This document shows, piece by piece, positions 1-5,564 of a DNA stretch of 5,564 nt (position 1 is its first letter; the number at the start of each line of letters is the position of its first letter). The notes below the pieces were generated by a model. It worked only from the letters and a program-made list of their open reading frames with translations. It made no database searches and was not told the DNA's origin. The position numbers and the translations under genes are program-made. The stretch is from a virus (taxonomy: Duplodnaviria > Heunggongvirae > Uroviricota > Caudoviricetes): positions 1 through 5,564 of the IMG/VR virus record IMGVR_UViG_2681813234_000001, one strand, 5' to 3'.

Positions 1-147
1 GAAATATTCAACATGCTGCTCATCTGCTTCACGGATGTTGTATCCCGGCTCCAGATAGATTTGCTCCACTGGCACGAGATAGGTTTTGTTAACAGCGATG
101 CCGTTTCGCGTTTCTTTGTCTGAATAGATTTTGCTTAGTGTTTTCAT
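1..147 (-). CDS. hypothetical protein, N-terminal part only (gene runs off the left edge); weak ParB-like N-terminal resemblance
   Basis: ATG at 147-145 (plus 'cat'), preceded by GGTGA about 8 nt upstream on the minus strand; open to position 1. Translation MKTLSKIYSDKETRNGIAVNKTYLVPVEQIYLEPGYNIREADEQHVEYF. Starts 1 nt after the stop (151-149) of the upstream gene, so it is the last visible gene of the leftward operon. The ParB-like hint (LVPVEQIYLEPGYNIR) is from memory only. Confidence 0.4.
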   Translation of the reverse strand, partial: MKTLSKIYSDKETRNGIAVNKTYLVPVEQIYLEPGYNIREADEQHVEYF

Positions 148-148
148 C

Positions 149-340
149 TCATTCACCACTTTCTTCCAATAATTGCTCGTAATATGCGACGTACTCATTA
201 GCAAGATAGTACAGGCGCTCAGCAGACTTGCGTTCTGCATTGCTTAAGTCACCAATAGACTCAATGTTGCCAATTGCATCAACACAATCGTTGAAGTCTT
301 GCTCCGTGTTACGGAATCTACAGTAGGACATGTTTGCCAT
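149..340 (-). CDS. hypothetical small acidic protein (63 aa)
   Basis: ORF-track ORF; ATG at 340-338 with a strong GAGGAG RBS 5 nt upstream on the minus strand; 2-nt gap to the upstream stop (345-343). 13 acidic vs 5 basic residues. No family recognised. Confidence 0.5.
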   Translation of the reverse strand: MANMSYCRFRNTEQDFNDCVDAIGNIESIGDLSNAERKSAERLYYLANEYVAYYEQLLEESGE

Positions 341-342
341 GA

Positions 343-603
343 TTACTCCTCACCACCCTGAAAAATGCCACCAAACTCTTCAACTAGTTCATCAATGCAT
401 TCGTCCGCCTCAGCGCAATTACCAGCAGCACTCAGCAGAATATCAACAGCCTCATCGTCAGGAATGTTGATTGCCGAGAAGAACTCAACAATGCACATTT
501 TCACAACCTGATATTCACCTTCTGTCTGGCAAGAAGCAAAACTGCAAGCGACTGCATCAATCAGCTTGGCTTTGTCATCACTTGGGTTATCAATATCAAA
601 CAT
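343..603 (-). CDS. hypothetical highly acidic cysteine-containing protein (86 aa from ATG 603; track ORF starts at TTG 633)
   Basis: The track ORF 343..633 starts at TTG. The in-frame ATG at 603-601 has an AAGGTG RBS with ~6-nt spacing and lies after the upstream gene's stop (620-618). Product MFDIDNPSDDK...EEFGGIFQGGEE has 21 D/E vs 3 K, no R/H, and 5 Cys. No family recognised. Confidence 0.5.
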   Translation of the reverse strand: MFDIDNPSDDKAKLIDAVACSFASCQTEGEYQVVKMCIVEFFSAINIPDDEAVDILLSAAGNCAEADECIDELVEEFGGIFQGGEE

Positions 604-617
604 TTCCATCACCTTTG

Positions 618-1088
618 TTAGTAAAAAAACCAATTTTCTGTTTCTTGGTTGTGTCCAAAGTTATATTCAATATCTGGCGTTGATGTATCAATATTCTTCA
701 TCCCATCAACAATGGTTGATACAACAGCCAAATCTTGTTTGATTCTCATTAAATGGTATTTCTTCCGGCGCAATAAACTTTCAATGGCAAGTTTCTTCGT
801 TGGAAATGCAAAAGATCTTTCTGCATTTTTTGCTACCTTCTTGATTGCATATCTGTTTATCTTTTTCTTCCATTCCTGTAACCACTGATTTGGTGCTGGT
901 TTTAAATCAACAACCCAATGCGCAGGAACCAACCATGCATAATGCTCTGTCTGATGAAAAGCTATATATTGAAGTGCGAATATTTTGATTCCATCTTCTT
1001 CAACTGTCGCTTGGAATCTCCAGAAAACAGGCATTCCATCATGTTCAGATTCTGATTCGGGGAATGGTACTAACCATGATTTATTCAT
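618..1088 (-). CDS. hypothetical protein (156 aa from ATG 1088; track ORF starts at ATG 1106)
   Basis: Track ORF 618..1106. The second in-frame ATG at 1088-1086 is preceded by GAGGTAA with good spacing, whereas ATG 1106 has no RBS and would sit ~16 nt from the predicted TSS. First gene of the leftward operon. Product MNKSWLVPFPESESEHDGMPVFWRF...ETENWFFY; no family recognised. Confidence 0.55.
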   Translation of the reverse strand: MNKSWLVPFPESESEHDGMPVFWRFQATVEEDGIKIFALQYIAFHQTEHYAWLVPAHWVVDLKPAPNQWLQEWKKKINRYAIKKVAKNAERSFAFPTKKLAIESLLRRKKYHLMRIKQDLAVVSTIVDGMKNIDTSTPDIEYNFGHNQETENWFFY

Positions 1089-1129
1089 CTTTATTACCTC
1101 TAACATTTATTGTTGTTTCTACGTCACTA

Positions 1130-1158
1130 ACTATAAACGCACCATCAATCTACGTCAA
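1130..1158 (-). promoter_or_regulatory. sigma70-like promoter for the leftward operon (TTGACG-17-TATAGT on the minus strand)
   Basis: Minus strand reads cctgTTGACGtagattgatggtgcgttTATAGTtagtg: -35 TTGACG (plus 1153-1158), 17-nt spacer, -10 TATAGT (plus 1130-1135). Predicted TSS near 1122, about 34 nt upstream of ATG 1088. Confidence 0.45.
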
Positions 1159-1166
1159 CAGGAATA

Positions 1167-1175
1167 TGCTAAAAT
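1167..1175 (+). promoter_or_regulatory. candidate extended -10 promoter (TGcTAAAAT) for the rightward block
   Basis: TGcTAAAAT at 1167-1175 with no good -35. It sits about 30 nt upstream of the AGGGGA RBS and ATG 1206, divergent from and overlapping the leftward promoter. Confidence 0.3.
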
Positions 1176-1205
1176 CATGCTAATCAAACAACAGGGGATT
1201 TAAAC

Positions 1206-1325
1206 ATGGGTTCCACCAATTCGCCTTCTCGTTCACGCGCTACTGGCAACACCAAAACTGGCGGCAAAACTGGCGCGGTGAAGCCAAACGGCTCCACCCG
1301 TTCACCATCGCGCGGTAAGAAATAA
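1206..1325 (+). CDS. hypothetical 39-aa basic low-complexity peptide
   Basis: ATG 1206 preceded by AGGGGA about 7 nt upstream. Translation MGSTNSPSRSRATGNTKTGGKTGAVKPNGSTRSPSRGKK, stop TAA 1323-1325 overlapping the next ATG (TAATG). Codon choices (ggc, cgt, cgc, acc) look coding. Below the ORF-track size cutoff. Confidence 0.4.
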   Translation: MGSTNSPSRSRATGNTKTGGKTGAVKPNGSTRSPSRGKK

Positions 1326-1765
1326 TGTTCGGTGCAGACGTTGCCATCATGATCATGTATGTGTTGGGTTTTGCCTGTACGGGCATGGTCGCGTTTCTGG
1401 TGTTCATTCCGGCAATGGTGATGTCTGTGTATCTTGGATGGGTGCTTGTTGATTCATTTCCCGCCGAATATCTGTATTACCTTGCGCAGTCTATGGTCTG
1501 GTTGTTTCCTGCCATTGCACTGCGCAAAAGTACAAAGATGGCGCTCTGCGTGCTGACTATGAGCCTTTACGAATGGCTGGTTGCGATAGAGTCATTCGTA
1601 TGGGAATTTATCACGCCTGTAGAAACGCCGCTTCATGCGCAGTACGCATTTATTATTATCGGCATCCATCTGTTCATCCTTTCCATCACTTTTAAATGGG
1701 GCGGCGAAATTGGACATTATTCTTGGCGTGGTCGCCATCGTTTTTTCGCTGATTCAAATCTATAA
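1325..1765 (+). CDS. hypothetical integral membrane protein (146 aa, about 4 predicted TM segments)
   Basis: Track ORF with ATG 1325 overlapping the upstream stop. Four hydrophobic stretches (VAIMIMYVLGFACTGMVAFLVFIPAMVMSVYLGWVLV, YLAQSMVWLFPAIAL, MALCVLTMSLYEWLVAI, YAFIIIGIHLFILSITF). The 3' end overlaps an alternative open frame (1635..1862), so the true C-terminus is uncertain. Confidence 0.45.
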   Translation: MFGADVAIMIMYVLGFACTGMVAFLVFIPAMVMSVYLGWVLVDSFPAEYLYYLAQSMVWLFPAIALRKSTKMALCVLTMSLYEWLVAIESFVWEFITPVETPLHAQYAFIIIGIHLFILSITFKWGGEIGHYSWRGRHRFFADSNL

Positions 1766-1797
1766 GTGCTGGAAACATATCATCAGCGAGACACGCA

Positions 1798-2082
1798 ATG
1801 AACGGAGCACTAAGACAAGTCGCAGAGCAGATTATAAGCGGAACGACAGGACAGGTGATTGATAAGGCTGGATATGCTTCTATTGGAACCGGCATCGGCC
1901 TGAAAGTTGCAGAGCAAACACCTGTCACGCAATCTTATTTTGAGGCTATGATTCCACACAGCCTGACAGAGTGGGCGGCAGTAGCGTCAATCCTCGGCGC
2001 TCTGTCTCTGGTAATAAAGAATCTGTTTGAAATGTGGTGGAAAGTTAGGGAGTCGAAGAAAAATGGCAGCACCAACACCTGA
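1798..2082 (+). CDS. putative holin-like small membrane protein (phage 21 S / pinholin-like architecture)
   Basis: Track ORF, 94 aa. A weakly hydrophobic G/A-rich TMD1 (AGYASIGTGIGLKVA), a second TMD (EWAAVASILGALSLVIKNLFEMWW) and a charged C-tail (KVRESKKNGSTNT) resemble phage 21 S as I recall it. An alternative GTG start at 1855 (AGGA 4 nt upstream) would give a shorter form. Stop TGA 2080-2082 overlaps the next gene. Confidence 0.45.
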   Translation: MNGALRQVAEQIISGTTGQVIDKAGYASIGTGIGLKVAEQTPVTQSYFEAMIPHSLTEWAAVASILGALSLVIKNLFEMWWKVRESKKNGSTNT

Positions 2083-2455
2083 AGAATTAGTAAGCCAGAT
2101 GGCATCCCGTGGAATGACTATCACCACAACGGATGCGTCCGGTATTCTGTGCCTTGTGACAGCAATCAGTGAATGCCTTGAACTGAACTATCCAAACGAT
2201 GAATGCCGACAAAATGCGATCATGCTGTGGGCTTCCATCCTGATTAGCGCAAATACCTCAGGTCGCTACGTTACCAGTCAGAGTGCACCATCTGGGGCAT
2301 CGCAATCGTTCGCGTATGGCAGTAAGCCGTGGGTGGCGCTGTACAATCAGATGAAACTACTGGATACAGCCGGATGCACTGGGGATTTGGTGGAAGACCC
2401 TGACGGAAGCGGTAAGCCGTGGTTTGCGGTTGTGCGTGGGAGTAAATGTAAATGA
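2063..2455 (+). CDS. putative head-tail adaptor / connector-like protein (130 aa)
   Basis: Track ORF 2027..2455 starts at TTG. The in-frame ATG 2063 has a GGGAG RBS about 11 nt upstream. N-terminus MAAPTPEELVSQM...DASGILCLVTAISECLE resembles gp6-like adaptors, and it is the first of four coupled genes ahead of the major tail gene. The assignment rests on synteny and a weak motif. Confidence 0.45.
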   Translation: MAAPTPEELVSQMASRGMTITTTDASGILCLVTAISECLELNYPNDECRQNAIMLWASILISANTSGRYVTSQSAPSGASQSFAYGSKPWVALYNQMKLLDTAGCTGDLVEDPDGSGKPWFAVVRGSKCK

Positions 2456-2793
2456 CTTCGCTGGCTCGGTTTTCCTATACGCAACCATGCACCATCTGGC
2501 ACAAAAGCGGCACCGACAAGTACGGCAAGCCGACTTTTGACGCGCCAGTGAGCATCATGTGCGATCATGGCTTTAACGATGATGTATCGACTGATGCGAA
2601 AGGTAATGAGATTGTACAGAAGAACACTTTCTGGACAGAATACACTGGCGCTAATGTTGGTGATTACATCATGATTGGCACGGTAACAGAAGCTGACCCG
2701 CTGGCAGCTGGCGCAAATCAGATTCTGAATGTGATTAATTATGGCAACACCTTCAATCGCGCTGAACCGCCTGACTTTGCACTGGTGACATAA
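2452..2793 (+). CDS. putative head-closure / head-tail joining protein (113 aa)
   Basis: ATG 2452 overlaps the upstream stop (ATGA), with GGGAG 9 nt upstream. Size and position between an adaptor-like and a gp10-like gene fit a head-closure protein. Product MTSLARFSYTQPCTIWHKSG... Confidence 0.45.
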   Translation: MTSLARFSYTQPCTIWHKSGTDKYGKPTFDAPVSIMCDHGFNDDVSTDAKGNEIVQKNTFWTEYTGANVGDYIMIGTVTEADPLAAGANQILNVINYGNTFNRAEPPDFALVT

Positions 2794-3191
2794 TGCCAGC
2801 GAAATTAAGAGGTGTCCGGCAGGCTGTAGAGAGAACTTCGCAAATTGTGGATGAGATAATCGCCACGAAAGCTGTGCGTGCAATCAAGTCAGCGACATAC
2901 ATCATCCGCACCGAATCAGCCACGCTAACGCCAATTGATACATCAACGCTGATTAACAGCCAGTTTGATACCGTGGAAGTTAACGGAACGCGAATCACTG
3001 GCAAGGTTGGCTACTCTGCGAAATATGCGCTGTATGTCCACAACGCCAGTGGGAAACTTACAGGCAAACCACGCAGCAACGGTAATGGTACGTACTGGTC
3101 GCCGGGTGGTGAACCGCAATTTTTGACCAAGGGAGCACGACGCACAAAAGACCTTGTTGATGGCGCGATTAAGAAGGAGATGACACTCTAA
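2793..3191 (+). CDS. HK97 gp10-like tail-completion / neck protein (132 aa)
   Basis: ATG 2793 overlaps the upstream stop (TAATG). The pattern ...TLTPIDTSTLINSQ...GKVGYSAKYALYVHNASGK...PQFLTKG matches my memory of the HK97 gp10 family consensus (D-T-G-x-L ... YAxYVE-like ... FL-KG). Confidence 0.55.
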   Translation: MPAKLRGVRQAVERTSQIVDEIIATKAVRAIKSATYIIRTESATLTPIDTSTLINSQFDTVEVNGTRITGKVGYSAKYALYVHNASGKLTGKPRSNGNGTYWSPGGEPQFLTKGARRTKDLVDGAIKKEMTL

Positions 3192-3565
3192 TGAATATGC
3201 TTGAGCTGGTTGATGCATATCTTCAGGATGCCGGATTGTATGATGGCTGGACTTCGCAGTTGCAGTTCTGGAATGATACCGGAGATGGTAACGAGCAATT
3301 TATTGTCCTGCAATCAAACGGCGGCACACAGGTGATGGATGGCCTCGGCGGTGATTTCTATTTCTCGCTGTACGTTGTTGGAAAACAAGGCCAGTACAAT
3401 GTTGCTGATGTTGATGCGAAAGCCAATGAGATTATCGAATACATCAAGACGCACCCGATTGATTCATGCGTTAACTACATCCAGTTGCAGGCTCCGCTCG
3501 GTCGGCCGATGTTGACGGAAGAAAAAAGACCAGTGCATGAGCTTCTATTGCGGGTTGTGAAATAA
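3191..3565 (+). CDS. putative tail terminator protein (gpU-like position, 124 aa)
   Basis: ATG 3191 overlaps the upstream stop (TAATG). It is the last gene before the terminator and the major tail gene; size and position fit a tail terminator. The call is mainly by synteny. Confidence 0.4.
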   Translation: MNMLELVDAYLQDAGLYDGWTSQLQFWNDTGDGNEQFIVLQSNGGTQVMDGLGGDFYFSLYVVGKQGQYNVADVDAKANEIIEYIKTHPIDSCVNYIQLQAPLGRPMLTEEKRPVHELLLRVVK

Positions 3566-3567
3566 AT

Positions 3568-3594
3568 AAAGCCGCATGAAGCGGCTTTTAATTT
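3568..3594. terminator. bidirectional rho-independent terminator
   Basis: aaaGCCGCatgaaGCGGCttt hairpin (stem 3568-3575 / 3581-3588) followed by TTTTAATTT on the plus strand and by TTTATTTATT on the minus strand. It ends both the rightward neck operon and the antisense tRNA. Confidence 0.65.
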
Positions 3595-3670
3595 GGTGGA
3601 CACGGACGGATTTGAACCTTCAATCAGCCGATTATGAGTCGGTTGCTTTAACCAATTAAGCTACGCGTCC
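3594..3670 (-). tRNA. tRNA with anticodon CAU (elongator Met or lysidine-modified Ile2 type), CCA encoded
   Basis: Minus-strand read GGACGCG-TA-GCTT-AATTGGTTA-AAGC-A-ACCGA-CTCATAA-TCGGC-TGATT-GAAGG-TTCAAAT-CCGTC-CGTGTCC-A-CCA. Acceptor stem 7 bp (one G-U), perfect D stem, anticodon loop CUCAUAA with U33 and A37, T-loop TTCAAAT. Caveats: one A-G mismatch in the T stem and an A-C at the first anticodon-stem pair. G1-C72 is paired, so it is not an initiator. Confidence 0.6.
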
Positions 3671-3704
3671 ATAAGTGCTGGTTTAAGCATTGCCAGCGTG
3701 CTTT

Positions 3705-3770
3705 CTTAATATCCAGCCCCGTAACCCATACATACCCCTACATATGATTGCGATAATGCTGGATATTAAG
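3705..3770. repeat. perfect 13-bp inverted repeat (cttaatatccagc / gctggatattaag) around a 40-nt loop
   Basis: Arms at 3705-3717 and 3758-3770 are exact reverse complements. A 13-bp inverted repeat within 100 bp is unlikely by chance in 5.5 kb (rough expectation about 0.01). Confidence 0.55.
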
Positions 3771-4045
3771 TGCTGTGGTGGCCGGTGCTGATCTCCGGCT
3801 TAGGTGCGAAACGGCACGGGTTTACGTACTGGATTCGCCGCATTTTTATAGCGCATCAGCCTGCGCATTCACCACAACGGAAAGAGCACTGCGCGGCACC
3901 TTTCACCAAATCCGCGAGGTCTACGTGTTCAATGCTCTTACCTGTTGCGTGCCGGTTACGCGTCCGGCGTCTTTCGACCGCTAATTGTAATTGAAGGATT
4001 GGATGTAATTAAATGAAATCATGGAACCAATCTCTGTTAAATCCT

Positions 4046-4074
4046 AATCTACACCACAAAATAATCACTGTCAA
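4046..4074 (-). promoter_or_regulatory. sigma70-like promoter, leftward (TTGACA-17-TAGATT), candidate promoter of the tRNA transcript
   Basis: Minus strand reads caggtgTTGACAgtgattattttgtggtgTAGATTagg: -35 at plus 4069-4074, -10 at plus 4046-4051. Near-identical architecture recurs at 5440-5468. Confidence 0.45.
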
Positions 4075-4080
4075 CACCTG

Positions 4081-4089
4081 TGATATAAT
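4081..4089 (+). promoter_or_regulatory. extended -10 promoter (TGaTATAAT) upstream of the major tail gene
   Basis: TGATATAAT at 4081-4089, about 27 nt upstream of the GGAG RBS (4116-4119) and ATG 4126. The same gatataatca motif recurs at 5481-5490. Confidence 0.4.
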
Positions 4090-4125
4090 CACCACGTTAG
4101 CAGCTAACACAATTCGGAGATCGAA

Positions 4126-4842
4126 ATGGCTATTTGTGCAAATGATAAAGGCGTTCTGGTCGGTCGCATGACCCGACTATTCCTTGCTGAAGGGTGCGGC
4201 GACGCAGTCCCGGAAGCAGGAGACTGGAAGTATTTGGGGTCAACCACCAGTAAAGGCGTTGACTACTCGCCGCAGACCACCACGTCGGAAGCTGATACCG
4301 CTGGCGGCTTTGTTTCCACTCTCGTTACCAGCTCTGATATGACCATCAGCGCAGAGGTTGAAATCCGCAAGAATGACCCGAGCGATGAGTTTGGTTTCCA
4401 TCGTCTTGTTGAGATTTACGCCACTGAACTGAAAGCGCGTCGCCAGCCTTCCTTGTGGGTGCGTGAGGTAACTGGTGCAACTATCGTTACCGCGTACTGC
4501 AACATCACTAGTATCAGCTACGAAGGTGGCACGAACGACATCGTTACTGGTAGCCTTGAGTTCAAGGTTTACGATTCTGACAGCGTTACCGTCGAAAGCC
4601 TTGAGCCTCTGGCATTCACTACCGACCTGCAATCAACTGGCAGCACTGGCAGCCCGTTAACTGTTGCTGTTGAAGGTGGCGTTGCTCCTTACACTTATGT
4701 ATGGCGCAAAGATGGTGTGGTTGTAGGCAGCGAATCTGGAGCAACACTGGCAAGCCCAACCGCTGGCGTGTATACCGTCACGGTAACTGATTCGTCTACT
4801 GACCCTGAAGTTATCCTGAGCACGGCTTGCACCGTATCCTGA
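4126..4842 (+). CDS. major tail (tube) protein with C-terminal Ig-like domain (238 aa)
   Basis: Track ORF; ATG 4126 with GGAG 6 nt upstream. Lies just downstream of the neck/terminator genes. C-terminal ~80 aa (LAFTTDLQSTGSTGSPLTVAVEGGVAPYTYVWRKDGVVVGSESGATLASPTAGVYTVTVTDSS) is an Ig-like (Big_2/PKD-like) beta-sandwich pattern typical of siphovirus major tail proteins such as lambda gpV. Confidence 0.6.
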   Translation: MAICANDKGVLVGRMTRLFLAEGCGDAVPEAGDWKYLGSTTSKGVDYSPQTTTSEADTAGGFVSTLVTSSDMTISAEVEIRKNDPSDEFGFHRLVEIYATELKARRQPSLWVREVTGATIVTAYCNITSISYEGGTNDIVTGSLEFKVYDSDSVTVESLEPLAFTTDLQSTGSTGSPLTVAVEGGVAPYTYVWRKDGVVVGSESGATLASPTAGVYTVTVTDSSTDPEVILSTACTVS

Positions 4843-4849
4843 CAAAGAA

Positions 4850-4877
4850 AAAGCCCCGAAAGGGGCTTTGTTTTATT
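4850..4877. terminator. bidirectional rho-independent terminator
   Basis: aaAGCCCCgaaaGGGGCTtt hairpin (GAAA tetraloop 4858-4861) followed by GTTTTATT on plus and TTTTTCTTT on minus. It ends the major tail gene and the leftward cassette, whose stop is at 4875-4873. Confidence 0.7.
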
Positions 4878-5073
4878 CTTGTGGTGGCTCTGGTGATTTA
4901 GCCCAATGGGTGGCTGGAATGCCGTGACAGCGGTCCAATTCACTAACAAACATCTTGCTGCCAATACTATCTACAGCTTTACATACCGCAGTTCTAACAA
5001 CACCGCGAAATGCTGTAAGAACCATCGCTCCTTCTTCCGGCATCTGATCACTACACTTAATCCACTGGATCAT
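4873..5073 (-). CDS. DUF551-like phage protein (66 aa)
   Basis: Track ORF; ATG 5073-5071 overlaps the upstream stop (ATGA). MIQWIKCSDQMPEEG...VLTAF...THWAKSPEPP matches the DUF551 signature as I recall it (WI-x-D-x-LPE-x-G ... HW ... PEPP). Confidence 0.65.
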   Translation of the reverse strand: MIQWIKCSDQMPEEGAMVLTAFRGVVRTAVCKAVDSIGSKMFVSELDRCHGIPATHWAKSPEPPQE

Positions 5074-5213
5074 ATCACCTTATCCTCATCAAAAATCACA
5101 CCAATCACACGAAGCAAGTCTTTCGCCATACGCTCTGCTTCTTCATAGTCGTAACCAGCATCAACATACAATTCAGTGTAGAAAATCAGGTCAGCTTTTG
5201 TTTGTTCGTTCAT
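5070..5213 (-). CDS. hypothetical 47-aa acidic protein
   Basis: ATG 5213-5211 overlaps the stop of the upstream Imm-like gene (ATGA), and its own stop TGA 5072-5070 overlaps the DUF551 ATG (ATGA). Translation MNEQTKADLIFYTELYVDAGYDYEEAERMAKDLLRVIGVIFDEDKVI (12 acidic, 5 basic). Below the ORF-track size cutoff; supported mainly by this double coupling. Confidence 0.45.
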   Translation of the reverse strand: MNEQTKADLIFYTELYVDAGYDYEEAERMAKDLLRVIGVIFDEDKVI

Positions 5214-5404
5214 TTCTTGTCGCCACTTTTAACCAGTGCCCAAACCAGTGCCGCAACCCACCCAATAAAGCTCCATCCGACAAGAATATTCAGTACGCAG
5301 ATTGCAGTCGTGTTTACGTGCTTGCGTTGCAGCGCCACAAAAGATGGAAGAAGATAAGCAAATATCACCAATCCAGCGAAAAGCAACAAAATAACAACAT
5401 CCAT
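5210..5404 (-). CDS. superinfection immunity (T4 Imm-like) family small membrane protein (64 aa)
   Basis: Track ORF; ATG 5404-5402 with GAGGTGA RBS 5 nt upstream. Two TM segments and the motif AYLLPSFVALQRKHVNTTAICVLNILVGWSFIGWVAALVWAL, which matches the superinfection-immunity small-protein family consensus as I recall it (YFLPSIIA-x-R-x-H-x-N ... LGW-x-IGW ... ALIWA). Confidence 0.7.
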   Translation of the reverse strand: MDVVILLLFAGLVIFAYLLPSFVALQRKHVNTTAICVLNILVGWSFIGWVAALVWALVKSGDKK

Positions 5405-5439
5405 AAATCACCTCACTCATATCTCGTTTCGATGACTTG

Positions 5440-5468
5440 AATCTACATCACCACCTCACAGGTGTCAA
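5440..5468 (-). promoter_or_regulatory. sigma70-like promoter, leftward (TTGACA-17-TAGATT), for the three-gene cassette
   Basis: Minus strand reads ggtggtgTTGACAcctgtgaggtggtgatgTAGATTcaag: -35 at plus 5463-5468, -10 at plus 5440-5445. TSS about 29 nt upstream of ATG 5404. Overlaps the inverted repeat GGTGT-ca-ACACC (5461-5472). Confidence 0.5.
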
Positions 5469-5479
5469 CACCACCGAGA

Positions 5480-5488
5480 TGATATAAT
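5480..5488 (+). promoter_or_regulatory. extended -10 promoter (TGaTATAAT) for the downstream rightward gene
   Basis: TGATATAAT at 5480-5488, about 18 nt upstream of AGGA (5506-5509) and ATG 5518. Confidence 0.4.
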
Positions 5489-5517
5489 CAACATCAGTCA
5501 AATTCAGGATGCAAAAC

Positions 5518-5564
5518 ATGAGCAATCGCACGCCACTAACAGAAATCGGAGAGATGCGCATCTC
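5518..5564 (+). CDS. hypothetical protein, N-terminal 15 codons only (position is consistent with a tail assembly chaperone, but too little sequence to say)
   Basis: ATG 5518 with AGGA 8 nt upstream; an alternative ATG at 5509 is in frame. Open to the window end (MSNRTPLTEIGEMRI...). Confidence 0.3.
   Translation, partial: MSNRTPLTEIGEMRI

Follow-up and report, generated by a model that had tools for sequence, protein, structure and literature searches.

In the stretch of phage DNA analysed here (hereafter the window; 5,564 nucleotides, positions 1 to 5,564 of the IMG/VR Caudoviricetes record IMGVR_UViG_2681813234_000001), three sites, A (4046-4091), B (5440-5490) and C (1130-1175), carry promoter-like elements on both strands. 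We consider it probable, at roughly 70%, that the three are back-to-back divergent promoter regions, which combine two predicted promoter classes and bound cargo slots. At each of them, a leftward sigma70 promoter would head an accessory unit running to a hairpin shared with the preceding rightward operon, and a rightward extended -10 promoter without a -35 element would restart structural transcription after that terminator. The observation is real, coherent and largely ordinary, being made of known kinds of element, and its added interest, which is modest, lies in a clade-specific promoter word and in an RNA of the first slot (slot A).

The window is ~92% identical to Salmonella phage SeSz-2, and its relatives are ~300 siphophages of 45-48 kb infecting Salmonella, E. 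coli and Shigella. The source phage is evidently a virulent Skatevirus-type siphophage with kin in Skatevirus and neighbouring genera, including Vi II-E1, and a lytic lifestyle has been described for relatives (PMC12001532, PMC9825161). For comparison, 33 related loci were collected by way of their major tail protein, each with 10 kb of flanking DNA to the left and right, three complete genomes were added, and each site was aligned on its downstream gene, giving ~30 distinct sequences per site (31 at C and 30 at B).

The sequence-only reading of the window had reported the same ordered blocks at sites A and B, and both were verified at their exact positions, site A reading AATCTACA ccacaaaataatcac TGTCAACACC tgt GATATAATCA and site B reading AATCTACA tcaccacctcacagg TGTCAACACC accgagat GATATAATCA. 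With up to three mismatches allowed, AATCTACA-N15-TGTCAACACC occurs twice in the window compared to 0.01 expected from 200 dinucleotide shuffles. The minus-strand interpretation of these blocks as TTGACA-17-TAGATT was recovered by a promoter scan with a 10/12 match at both sites, and the looser third copy with other hexamers also proved real at site C (TTGACG-17-TATAGT, facing TGcTAAAAT). These three were the only sigma70-like -35/-10 sites returned by the scan in the whole window, and all of them are on the minus strand. As sigma70 -35/-10 promoters do, the leftward sites have the hexamers (a -35 close to TTGACA and a -10 of the form TAnnnT), a spacer within 16-18 nt, a same-strand unit with a leader, and constrained hexamers; the leader from the predicted leftward start to the ATG measures 29 nt at B and 35 nt at C, and both leaders contain a ribosome-binding site (RBS). 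Promoter-like hexamer pairs are depleted across the window as a whole (3 versus a shuffle mean of 8.3, sd 2.7).

On the plus strand, the extended -10 sequence TGaTATAAT is present at both A and B, as had been claimed. The three rightward sites all have TG one base before a near-consensus -10 and no recognisable -35, the best -35 scores being 1, 3 and 1 of 6. The motif TGNTANAAT has three copies in the window, all on the plus strand, at 1167 (TGCTAAAAT), 4081 and 5480 (both TGATATAAT), and their placement is remarkable, each lying 30-37 nt 5' of a start codon. Furthermore, the composite ANNNTA, 16-18 nt, NGTCAA, 0-12 nt, TGNTANNNT was found three times in the window and three times in the whole of SeSz-2 (45 kb), where its copies occupy the orthologous places and 0.06 would be expected. 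The strict -35/-10 match totals are not above those of shuffles. Since the totals of the promoter words are at chance, the weight of the evidence lies only on placement and conservation. The predicted features of the window are collected in Table 1.

Table 1. Predicted promoters, transcription units, genes, RNAs and terminators of the window, from left to right.
Feature	Position	Strand	Details
Small ORFs of unknown function, left of site C	149-1088	-	leading gene 156 aa, ATG 1088
Site C leftward unit	predicted start ~1123	-	ATG 1088 (156 aa); RBS GAGGTAAT 1100-1093
TGAYGTAGA copy TGACGTAGA	1118-1126	-	over the predicted leftward start point of site C
Site C leftward promoter	1130-1158	-	TTGACG 1158-1153, 17-nt spacer, TATAGT 1135-1130; 10/12 match
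Site C rightward extended -10, TGcTAAAAT, no -35	1167-1175	+	predicted start ~1182; first ORF ATG 1206
Head-tail genes	1206-3565	+	last gene is the tail-terminator protein, PF23842
Hairpin terminator	3568-3588	both units; scored on -	serves the tail-terminator-protein operon and the leftward slot-A transcript; left end of slot A
tRNA, anticodon CAT	3594-3670	-	optional slot A cargo
Conserved structured RNA candidate, 101 nt	3677-3777	-	constant slot A cargo; directly upstream of tRNA/terminator
Site A leftward promoter	4046-4074	-	TTGACA 4074-4069, 17-nt spacer, TAGATT 4051-4046; predicted start ~4039
Site A rightward extended -10, TGaTATAAT, no -35	4081-4089	+	predicted start ~4096; major tail protein ATG 4126
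Major tail protein	4126-4842	+	ATG 4126; RBS GGAGA 4116-4120
Two-way hairpin terminator	4850-4869	scored on both	ends the major-tail-protein transcript and the slot-B cassette; left end of slot B
Slot B cargo	4873-5404	-	Imm_superinfect 5404-5210; 47-aa ORF 5213-5070; DUF551 protein 5073-4873
Site B leftward unit	predicted start ~5433	-	TGATGTAGA 5450-5442; RBS GTGAGGTG 5416-5409; ATG 5404
Site B leftward promoter	5440-5468	-	TTGACA 5468-5463, 17-nt spacer, TAGATT 5445-5440; 10/12 match
Site B rightward extended -10, TGaTATAAT, no -35	5480-5488	+	predicted start ~5495; structural gene ATG 5518
Next tail gene, 5' part	ATG 5518	+	downstream of site B

The gene content on the two sides of the sites agrees with this arrangement. 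Structural functions make up the rightward units (head-tail genes, major tail protein, and tail chaperone/tape-measure genes), and the leftward units are accessory, consisting of a tRNA and a non-coding RNA at A, the Imm_superinfect and DUF551 genes at B, and small genes of unknown function at C, farther leftward of which relatives carry anti-restriction and ParB-like genes. The earlier proposal that each copy drives one accessory and one structural unit is thus in agreement with sequence, placement and conservation, all of them in silico, and promoter activity itself is a prediction. In their hexamers, 17-nt spacer, TGn, missing -35 and distances to RBS and start codon, the sites resemble divergent pairs of a sigma70 and an extended -10 promoter.

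Conservation among the relatives falls on the predicted promoter elements. The hexamers AATCTA or ACTATA, NGTCAA and the TGnTAnAAT element are invariant in the ~30 distinct sequences per site, and the variable positions lie in the leftward spacer (5453 and 5457-5458; 1139-1146) and in the interval between the -35 and the rightward TG (5471, 5472 and 5475). At site C, the -35/-10 hexamers and TGcTAAAAT are invariant in 31 distinct relatives around a hypervariable spacer (1139-1146). At site B, the rightward TGaTATAAT is invariant in 30 distinct relatives, and positions 5471, 5472 and 5475 adjacent to it upstream vary. The leftward promoter of site A is nearly invariant in the 31 relatives bearing it (33 loci listed, two of them duplicate records), and the DNA to the left of it belongs to at least four unrelated classes, the homology breakpoint coinciding with the outer edge of the leftward -10. 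Two relatives, L025 and L028, have a different sequence of the same design at site B, in which AATCTA-18-TGTCAA is followed directly by TGATATAAT, and in Vi II-E1-type genomes the leftward promoter of site A is absent and TGATATAAT and the leader are retained. Across genomes, 0 to 11 nt separate the leftward -35 from the rightward TG (6-11 nt at the three window sites), which, together with the absence of the leftward promoter in Vi II-E1-type genomes, indicates that the two promoters are separate adjoining elements and not one rigid module.

The predicted divergent starts are 57, 62 and 59 bp apart at A, B and C, and the divergent -10 elements are separate at each site (at A, 4046-4051 versus 4084-4089), with 29-34 nt between them. 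RNA polymerase covers roughly -55 to +20 of a promoter. With starts 57-62 bp apart, the two footprints would overlap, so that two polymerases could not sit on one junction at once and the promoters should compete. Symmetric bidirectional promoters, in which divergent starts lie ~18 bp apart (7-25 bp) and one -10 is common to both directions (PMC10268837, PMC12825309), are alike in giving divergent transcription from a short region with competing polymerase orientations, but the junctions of the window differ from them in their separate -10s and in their 57-62-bp start distance. Pairs of the symmetric type (TAnAATCTA) do occur elsewhere in SeSz-2, where at 16037-16050 and 24365-24381 the plus- and minus-strand -10s overlap by 3 nt (TATAATCTA, or TAGATTGTA/TACAATCTA) with starts ~16-18 bp apart, unlike the three junctions of the window.

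A genome-wide search showed that the elements recur beyond the window, TCTACRTCA far beyond chance and TGNTANAAT by its position; the refuting condition set by the sequence-only reading, a motif without recurrence above chance in the rest of the genome, was thereby checked and did not refute it. In SeSz-2, TGNTANAAT has 13 sites. Eleven of them are on the plus strand, and ten are followed, at a distance of 15-100 nt, by a start codon of the same strand (binomial P = 1.6e-9). Nine of these ten are plus-strand sites before virion or lysis genes, namely the terminase region, portal, endolysin, scaffold/capsid, major tail protein, tape-measure operon, distal tail, tail protein and tailspike, and site C would be the tenth such site if the SeSz-2 record had an annotation for the first small ORF there. 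Orthologous TGNTANAAT sites are present in Skate and Vi II-E1. The mean -35 score of the ten SeSz-2 sites is 2.4, compared to 2.49 at random positions. The predicted second class thus comprises extended -10 promoters without a -35, placed before virion and lysis operons. The extended -10 word of the portal gene, TGCTATAAT, lies before that gene (17587-17630 in SeSz-2; 3235-3270 in L003) and is followed immediately by a hairpin and a T-run, annotated as a terminator in Skate; transcripts from it would begin inside the hairpin stem and would therefore escape the terminator that halts upstream read-through.

That only the leftward promoters are real, the plus-strand TGnTAnAAT being incidental AT-rich upstream sequence and the structural genes being served by read-through, seems very unlikely to us. 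The -45 to -60 zone of promoters is where AT-rich UP elements sit, the TGnTAnAAT words do fall in this zone of the leftward promoters, and the TGNTANAAT total is not above chance. However, the same word stands before five co-directional SeSz-2 late operons that have no divergent partner (13510, 17587, 26427, 41063 and 43645), its positional enrichment is strong, as given above, and at site A it is kept in the Vi II-E1-type genomes that have no adjacent leftward promoter. Moreover, hairpin terminators precede sites A and B, so that a restart of transcription is needed there.

The other predicted class is marked by a word of its own. The aatctaca block at A and B belongs to the 9-mer TCTAC(A/G)TCA, which reads TGAYGTAGA in the direction of transcription and occurs 15 times in SeSz-2, 11 times in Skate and 10 times in Vi II-E1, compared to 0.76 expected, nearly all copies being intergenic. 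In the window it was found three times against 0.10 expected, and site A has a one-mismatch variant (TGGTGTAGA). Where Y is T, the copies make up the -10 region (TGATG+TAGATT) and stand 25-45 nt ahead of start codons; where Y is C, they overlap the -35 (tTGACGTAGA), as does the second copy of site C at 1149-1157. On either strand, the genes that follow the copies are those for replication, recombination and anti-restriction and small genes of unknown function. The double motif TGACGTAGA-N8-TGATGTAGA was found in only 40 stretches of IMG/VR, nearly all of them on contigs of one size class (~44-49 kb) and many on the very contigs that had been collected as relatives through the major tail protein. 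Taken together, class 1 is predicted to consist of -35/-10 promoters with the clade-specific TGAYGTAGA, placed before early or accessory units. The TGAYGTAGA bases conserved in these promoters have no place in the sigma70 consensus, and their promoter activity, too, is predicted from sequence.

It is possible, though we would not give it even odds, that the conserved blocks, and especially AATCTAC(A/G)TCA (TGAYGTAGATT), are bound by a regulator of early transcription that the phage encodes, which would repress it or redirect the polymerase. Their resemblance to sigma70 promoters would then be only part of the reason for their conservation, and this explanation is compatible with divergent promoters. 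The 9-mer is 13-20x over-represented and almost confined to intergenic DNA in three clade genomes, and the 40 IMG/VR stretches with the double motif are nearly all on contigs of the one size class, many of them those of the collected relatives. At site C, the AATCTA beside the -35 and the copy over the start point are kept with the hypervariable spacer between them, and orthologs vary mainly at Y: in the start-point copy, position 1123 (Y) is G/A in 5/31 and three neighbouring positions vary once each. In addition, some copies have, by eye, no usable -35 at 16-18 nt, such as those at 16053, 24348 and 24365 of SeSz-2. Against a regulator site, the spacing of the copies is irregular (10, 17, 30-31 and 37 nt; direct and inverted), unlike that of cooperative operators, the C/T choice follows the -35 or -10 role of the copy, which is what a constraint mainly from sigma70 contacts would produce, site A carries the variant word, no candidate protein was identified, and the literature search found nothing on the word. 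More tentatively still, and with the balance of probability clearly on the other side, TGAYGTAGA may be the recognition word of a clade-specific regulator, such as a phage-encoded repressor or a factor redirecting the host polymerase. On this view the word occupies the -35, the -10 and, at site C, the start point of every early or accessory promoter, so that binding would shut these promoters together; as each of them overlaps an oppositely facing extended -10 promoter without a -35, all virion and lysis operons would be freed by the one event. If true, this would be a genome-wide early-to-late switch arising from promoter competition at interleaved junctions.

Two other assignments of the word were tried and rejected. 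Read as an extended -10 in the other register, it has its TG 3 nt, not 1 nt, from the hexamer, and as a site for another sigma factor or a host factor (MetJ, IHF or CRP) it gave no fit. A divergent region of SeSz-2 between the primase and HNH/helicase genes (6603-6715) contains two direct repeats, atgaaacaat(c/t)aatcgttac, and a TGATGTAGAAT copy within the first primase codons that is without a properly spaced -35.

We next consider the DNA bounded by the sites. Slot A separates the gene of the tail-terminator protein from that of the major tail protein, and slot B separates the latter from the tail gene that comes next. Their lengths range from 422 to 1566 nt (A, from the tail-terminator-protein stop to the major-tail-protein leader) and from 654 to 1358 nt (B, from the major-tail-protein stop to the next gene), and each has 12 sequence classes among ~35 genomes, the window combining a slot A of the L012 type with a slot B of the type of L008, L011, L029 and L030. 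The terminator hairpins persist through this turnover: that of slot A has a conserved stem and a variable loop in every slot-A class, and that of slot B is kept in every slot-B class. At site B, homology extends through the 5' leader and RBS up to the start codon of whichever gene leads. No empty slot was found in the 34 relatives measured, their contents varying. Thus, the predicted promoters and terminators are conserved backbone, and they enclose a slot whose cargo differs from relative to relative, with a minority exception in which promoter and cargo are replaced together (L025/L028 at B and the Vi II-E1 type at A).

The cargo of slot A in relatives consists of minus-strand tRNAs (Met-CAT, Ile-AAT, Arg-TCT, Ser-GCT) or lacks a tRNA, and the tRNA of the window is a clean ~80-90-nt indel among them (the tRNA plus a few flanking bases). 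On the upstream side of the tRNA in the minus-strand sense, ~370 nt contain no ORF. The anticodon is CAT in the window and many relatives and AAT at the same position in others, and the records differ between tRNA-Ile and tRNA-Met; AAT has been reported for the slot-A tRNA (PMC12001532). Five relatives illustrate the tRNA variants (L003, L013, L015, L018 and L022), tRNA-Arg(TCT) and tRNA-Ser(GCT) occupying the same slot in other relatives. In slot B, unrelated last genes end alike beside the terminator (4870-4900; ...PPQE-stop), and these common codons place the left recombination boundary of the slot inside the gene 3' end, not at the hairpin. A genome-reduced viable mutant, seszw_300L.2 (36.6 kb), from a published genome-reduction study of the relative seszw (PMC9825161; L083 in our set), retains the slot-A RNA/tRNA region and three slot-B genes. 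It has no ortholog of the gene at window 1325-1765, and the cassette left of site C is two genes short. Because the deletions in seszw were designed gene by gene, promoter retention in this mutant is uninformative. The first ORF after the rightward promoter of site C (1206-1325, plus strand) encodes 39 aa, very basic and rich in Gly, Ser, Thr, Lys and Arg (MGSTNSPSRSRATGNTKTGGKTGAVKPNGSTRSPSRGKK), and is annotated in Skate and unannotated in SeSz-2.

Morons, reportedly described by Juhala and Hendrix, are autonomous promoter-gene-terminator units between phage late genes. Slots A and B are alike in lying between tail genes in the opposite direction, with their own promoter and terminator and with contents that vary among relatives. 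The lower G+C of morons is matched by the minus-strand coding cassettes of slot B (0.43-0.46) and left of site C (0.35-0.44), compared to 0.46-0.54 in the structural genes, but not by slot A, whose 0.47-0.50 shows no lowering relative to the structural genes. The slots differ from morons in having no empty counterpart, and in that the promoter here belongs mostly to the backbone and not to the insert; expression from a prophage probably does not apply, the phage being virulent.

The sequence-only reading had further taken the sites for duplicated promoter cassettes and a sign of modular acquisition. The adjoining slots are indeed hypervariable, but the promoters are mostly fixed backbone, and A and B are too dissimilar. 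Their spacers are identical at 9/17 positions (by eye), and what they have in common is the hexamers, the family-wide TG(A/G)TG beside the -10 and four bases beyond the -35 that are variable in B orthologs, so that A and B look like two members of one predicted promoter family and not like a recent duplication. We regard it as unlikely that the module is a mobile or duplicated promoter cassette travelling with accessory genes and mediating their insertion, akin to the composite promoter/stem-loop cassettes (PeSLs) by which modules are shuffled in T4-like phages (PMC2839356, PMC4122927). Pointing towards such a cassette are the 12 sequence classes per slot, the homology breakpoints at the promoter edge (A), the start codon (B) and the terminators, the leftward promoters swapped along with cargo in L025/L028 and Vi II-E1-type genomes, and the sequence common to A and B, which is the hexamers and a 10-nt inverted word with few bases besides. 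As in PeSLs, a conserved promoter and a hairpin bracket variable genes at homology breakpoints. However, most genomes keep the same promoter and differ in cargo, making the promoter backbone and not a passenger, and much of the A/B spacer match is the family-wide TGRTG beside the -10. PeSLs are compact, near-identical repeats, whereas no stem-loop stands beside the promoters here: promoter and hairpin occupy opposite ends of the slot, 0.5-1 kb apart. The A and B copies are too dissimilar to be obvious mutual recombination substrates, and the strict composite is limited to three orthologous places per genome.

A shared operator at sites A and B had also been suggested on the basis of the inverted repeat GGTGT-ca-ACACC, which is present at 5461-5472, and of CACCTGT/ACAGGTG in opposite orientations, which is present and at 10 nt longer than claimed (ACACCTGTGA at 4074-4083 versus TCACAGGTGT at 5456-5465). 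The chance of any common inverted 7-mer between the A and B modules is 0.036 by shuffles, and this link and the palindrome are what favour a common palindromic operator through which one regulator would act on both junctions. The relatives do not bear this out. In 11 of the 30 distinct site B orthologs the right arm of the palindrome varies (acacc, acatc, acact; 5471 is C/T in 6 and 5472 C/T in 5), whereas no change is seen in the left arm. Positions 5457-5458, the most variable of the module, fall within the ACAGGTG word of B, the 10-mer is common to only a subset of genomes, and site C and the L025/L028 version of site B have neither palindrome nor inverted word. We therefore judge such an operator to be highly improbable, and prefer to see in the three sites divergent promoters of two classes.

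Leftward transcription at site A is supported from another side by the RNA in slot A. A 101-nt core is present in nearly all relatives with a slot A of this type, 33 of 36 related loci (two being duplicate records), in every slot-A class and with or without a tRNA. RNAalifold analysis of 19 distinct sequences gave a 13-bp stem (3770-3758 with 3717-3705), inner hairpins and a 3' hairpin (3697-3677), in which 98.8% of cells are paired, compared to 27-45% in slid controls. Three pairs show compensatory change (for example CG 9, UA 7 and UG 2 at one pair), and the covariation score of the core is above those of all 500 shuffles. Moreover, ~80 cells are G-U pairs, which on the opposite strand would be C-A mismatches, indicating that the minus strand is the structured one. 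An RNA structured on the minus strand below promoter A supports leftward transcription at this site independently of promoter prediction. Folding of the whole slot-A leader is modest (z -2.3 with the tRNA; -1.35 for a lambdoid-like segment), and the informative RNA test is the comparative fold of the 101-nt core, not whole-leader folding. An Rfam scan of the window at E <= 1 returned only the tRNA and no family for the core; a weak plus-strand match at the tRNA locus was set aside. Outside the Skatevirus-type clade the element does not occur (140 phage records, all of the clade), most records leaving it unannotated or calling a 'hypothetical protein' over it.

Another part of the slot-A leader, a 97-nt stretch at 3851-3947 (sense minus), is 94-96% identical to unannotated DNA of lambdoid prophages. 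There it follows closely on a hairpin-plus-T-run terminator, in the interval from the Q antiterminator gene to the holin gene, and 224 of 5426 complete E. coli genomes have it. It is also found in phage HK629, and the matching positions in two loci of our set are L042 1501-1597 and L040 1201-1294. Klebsiella and Erwinia phages from several families contain pieces of ~40 nt that match at up to 100%, and a second shared block lies near 3770-3797.

Based on the overlap of the predicted footprints, a hand-over at the junctions can be envisaged. Unmodified host polymerase should favour the -35-dependent leftward promoter early in infection, and were any phage function to disable recognition of the -35, or to bind the TGAYGTAGA/-35 region, each junction would be handed to the rightward promoter, the outcome being an early-to-late switch. 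A switch of this kind is known in Thermus phage P23-45, where gp39, and probably AsiA in T4, shifts transcription from -35/-10 to extended -10 promoters by blocking -35 recognition (PMC3950348). P23-45's middle and late genes are on -35-less extended -10 promoters, like the virion and lysis operons here. Unlike P23-45 and T4, the present phage has yielded no gp39- or AsiA-like protein, and early and late timing here is inferred. The early genes of P23-45 are transcribed by a phage-encoded polymerase.

Several points weigh against the divergent-promoter reading. The TGNTANAAT total is not above chance (13 versus 8.3 in SeSz-2; 3 versus 1.0 in the window, where 14 of 200 shuffles reach 3), and TAGATT fits the -10 consensus at just 4/6 positions. 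A sigma70 model leaves the conserved TGAYG before the -10 and TAGA after the -35 unaccounted for, and the third TGAYGTAGA copy, over the start point of site C, is likewise outside it. The 0-11-nt gap between the promoters speaks for simple juxtaposition and not for a composite switch by design, the analysis identified no candidate for an anti-sigma factor or repressor, and the 10-nt inverted match between A and B is not accounted for either, the relatives giving no sign of constraint. In the literature, we found no transcription start or expression data for this phage group; a search for promoter studies or motif words of Jersey-, Skate- and Vi II-E1-like phages was without relevant result, and genome papers on relatives give just counts of predicted promoters.

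The analysis does not overturn current understanding, and its value is organisational and practical. It provides a working transcription map for a group of phages of Salmonella, E. coli and Shigella that is common, little studied and in use for biocontrol and therapy. The map proposes two promoter classes, insulated leftward cassettes and a restart promoter for each structural operon, and the analysis exposes two unstudied elements, the TGAYGTAGA word and the conserved structured RNA of slot A. The two natural cargo slots, which tolerate 0.4-1.6 kb of varied content between conserved promoter and terminator bounds, are obvious insertion sites for payloads, and the three junctions mark where related phages swap cargo.

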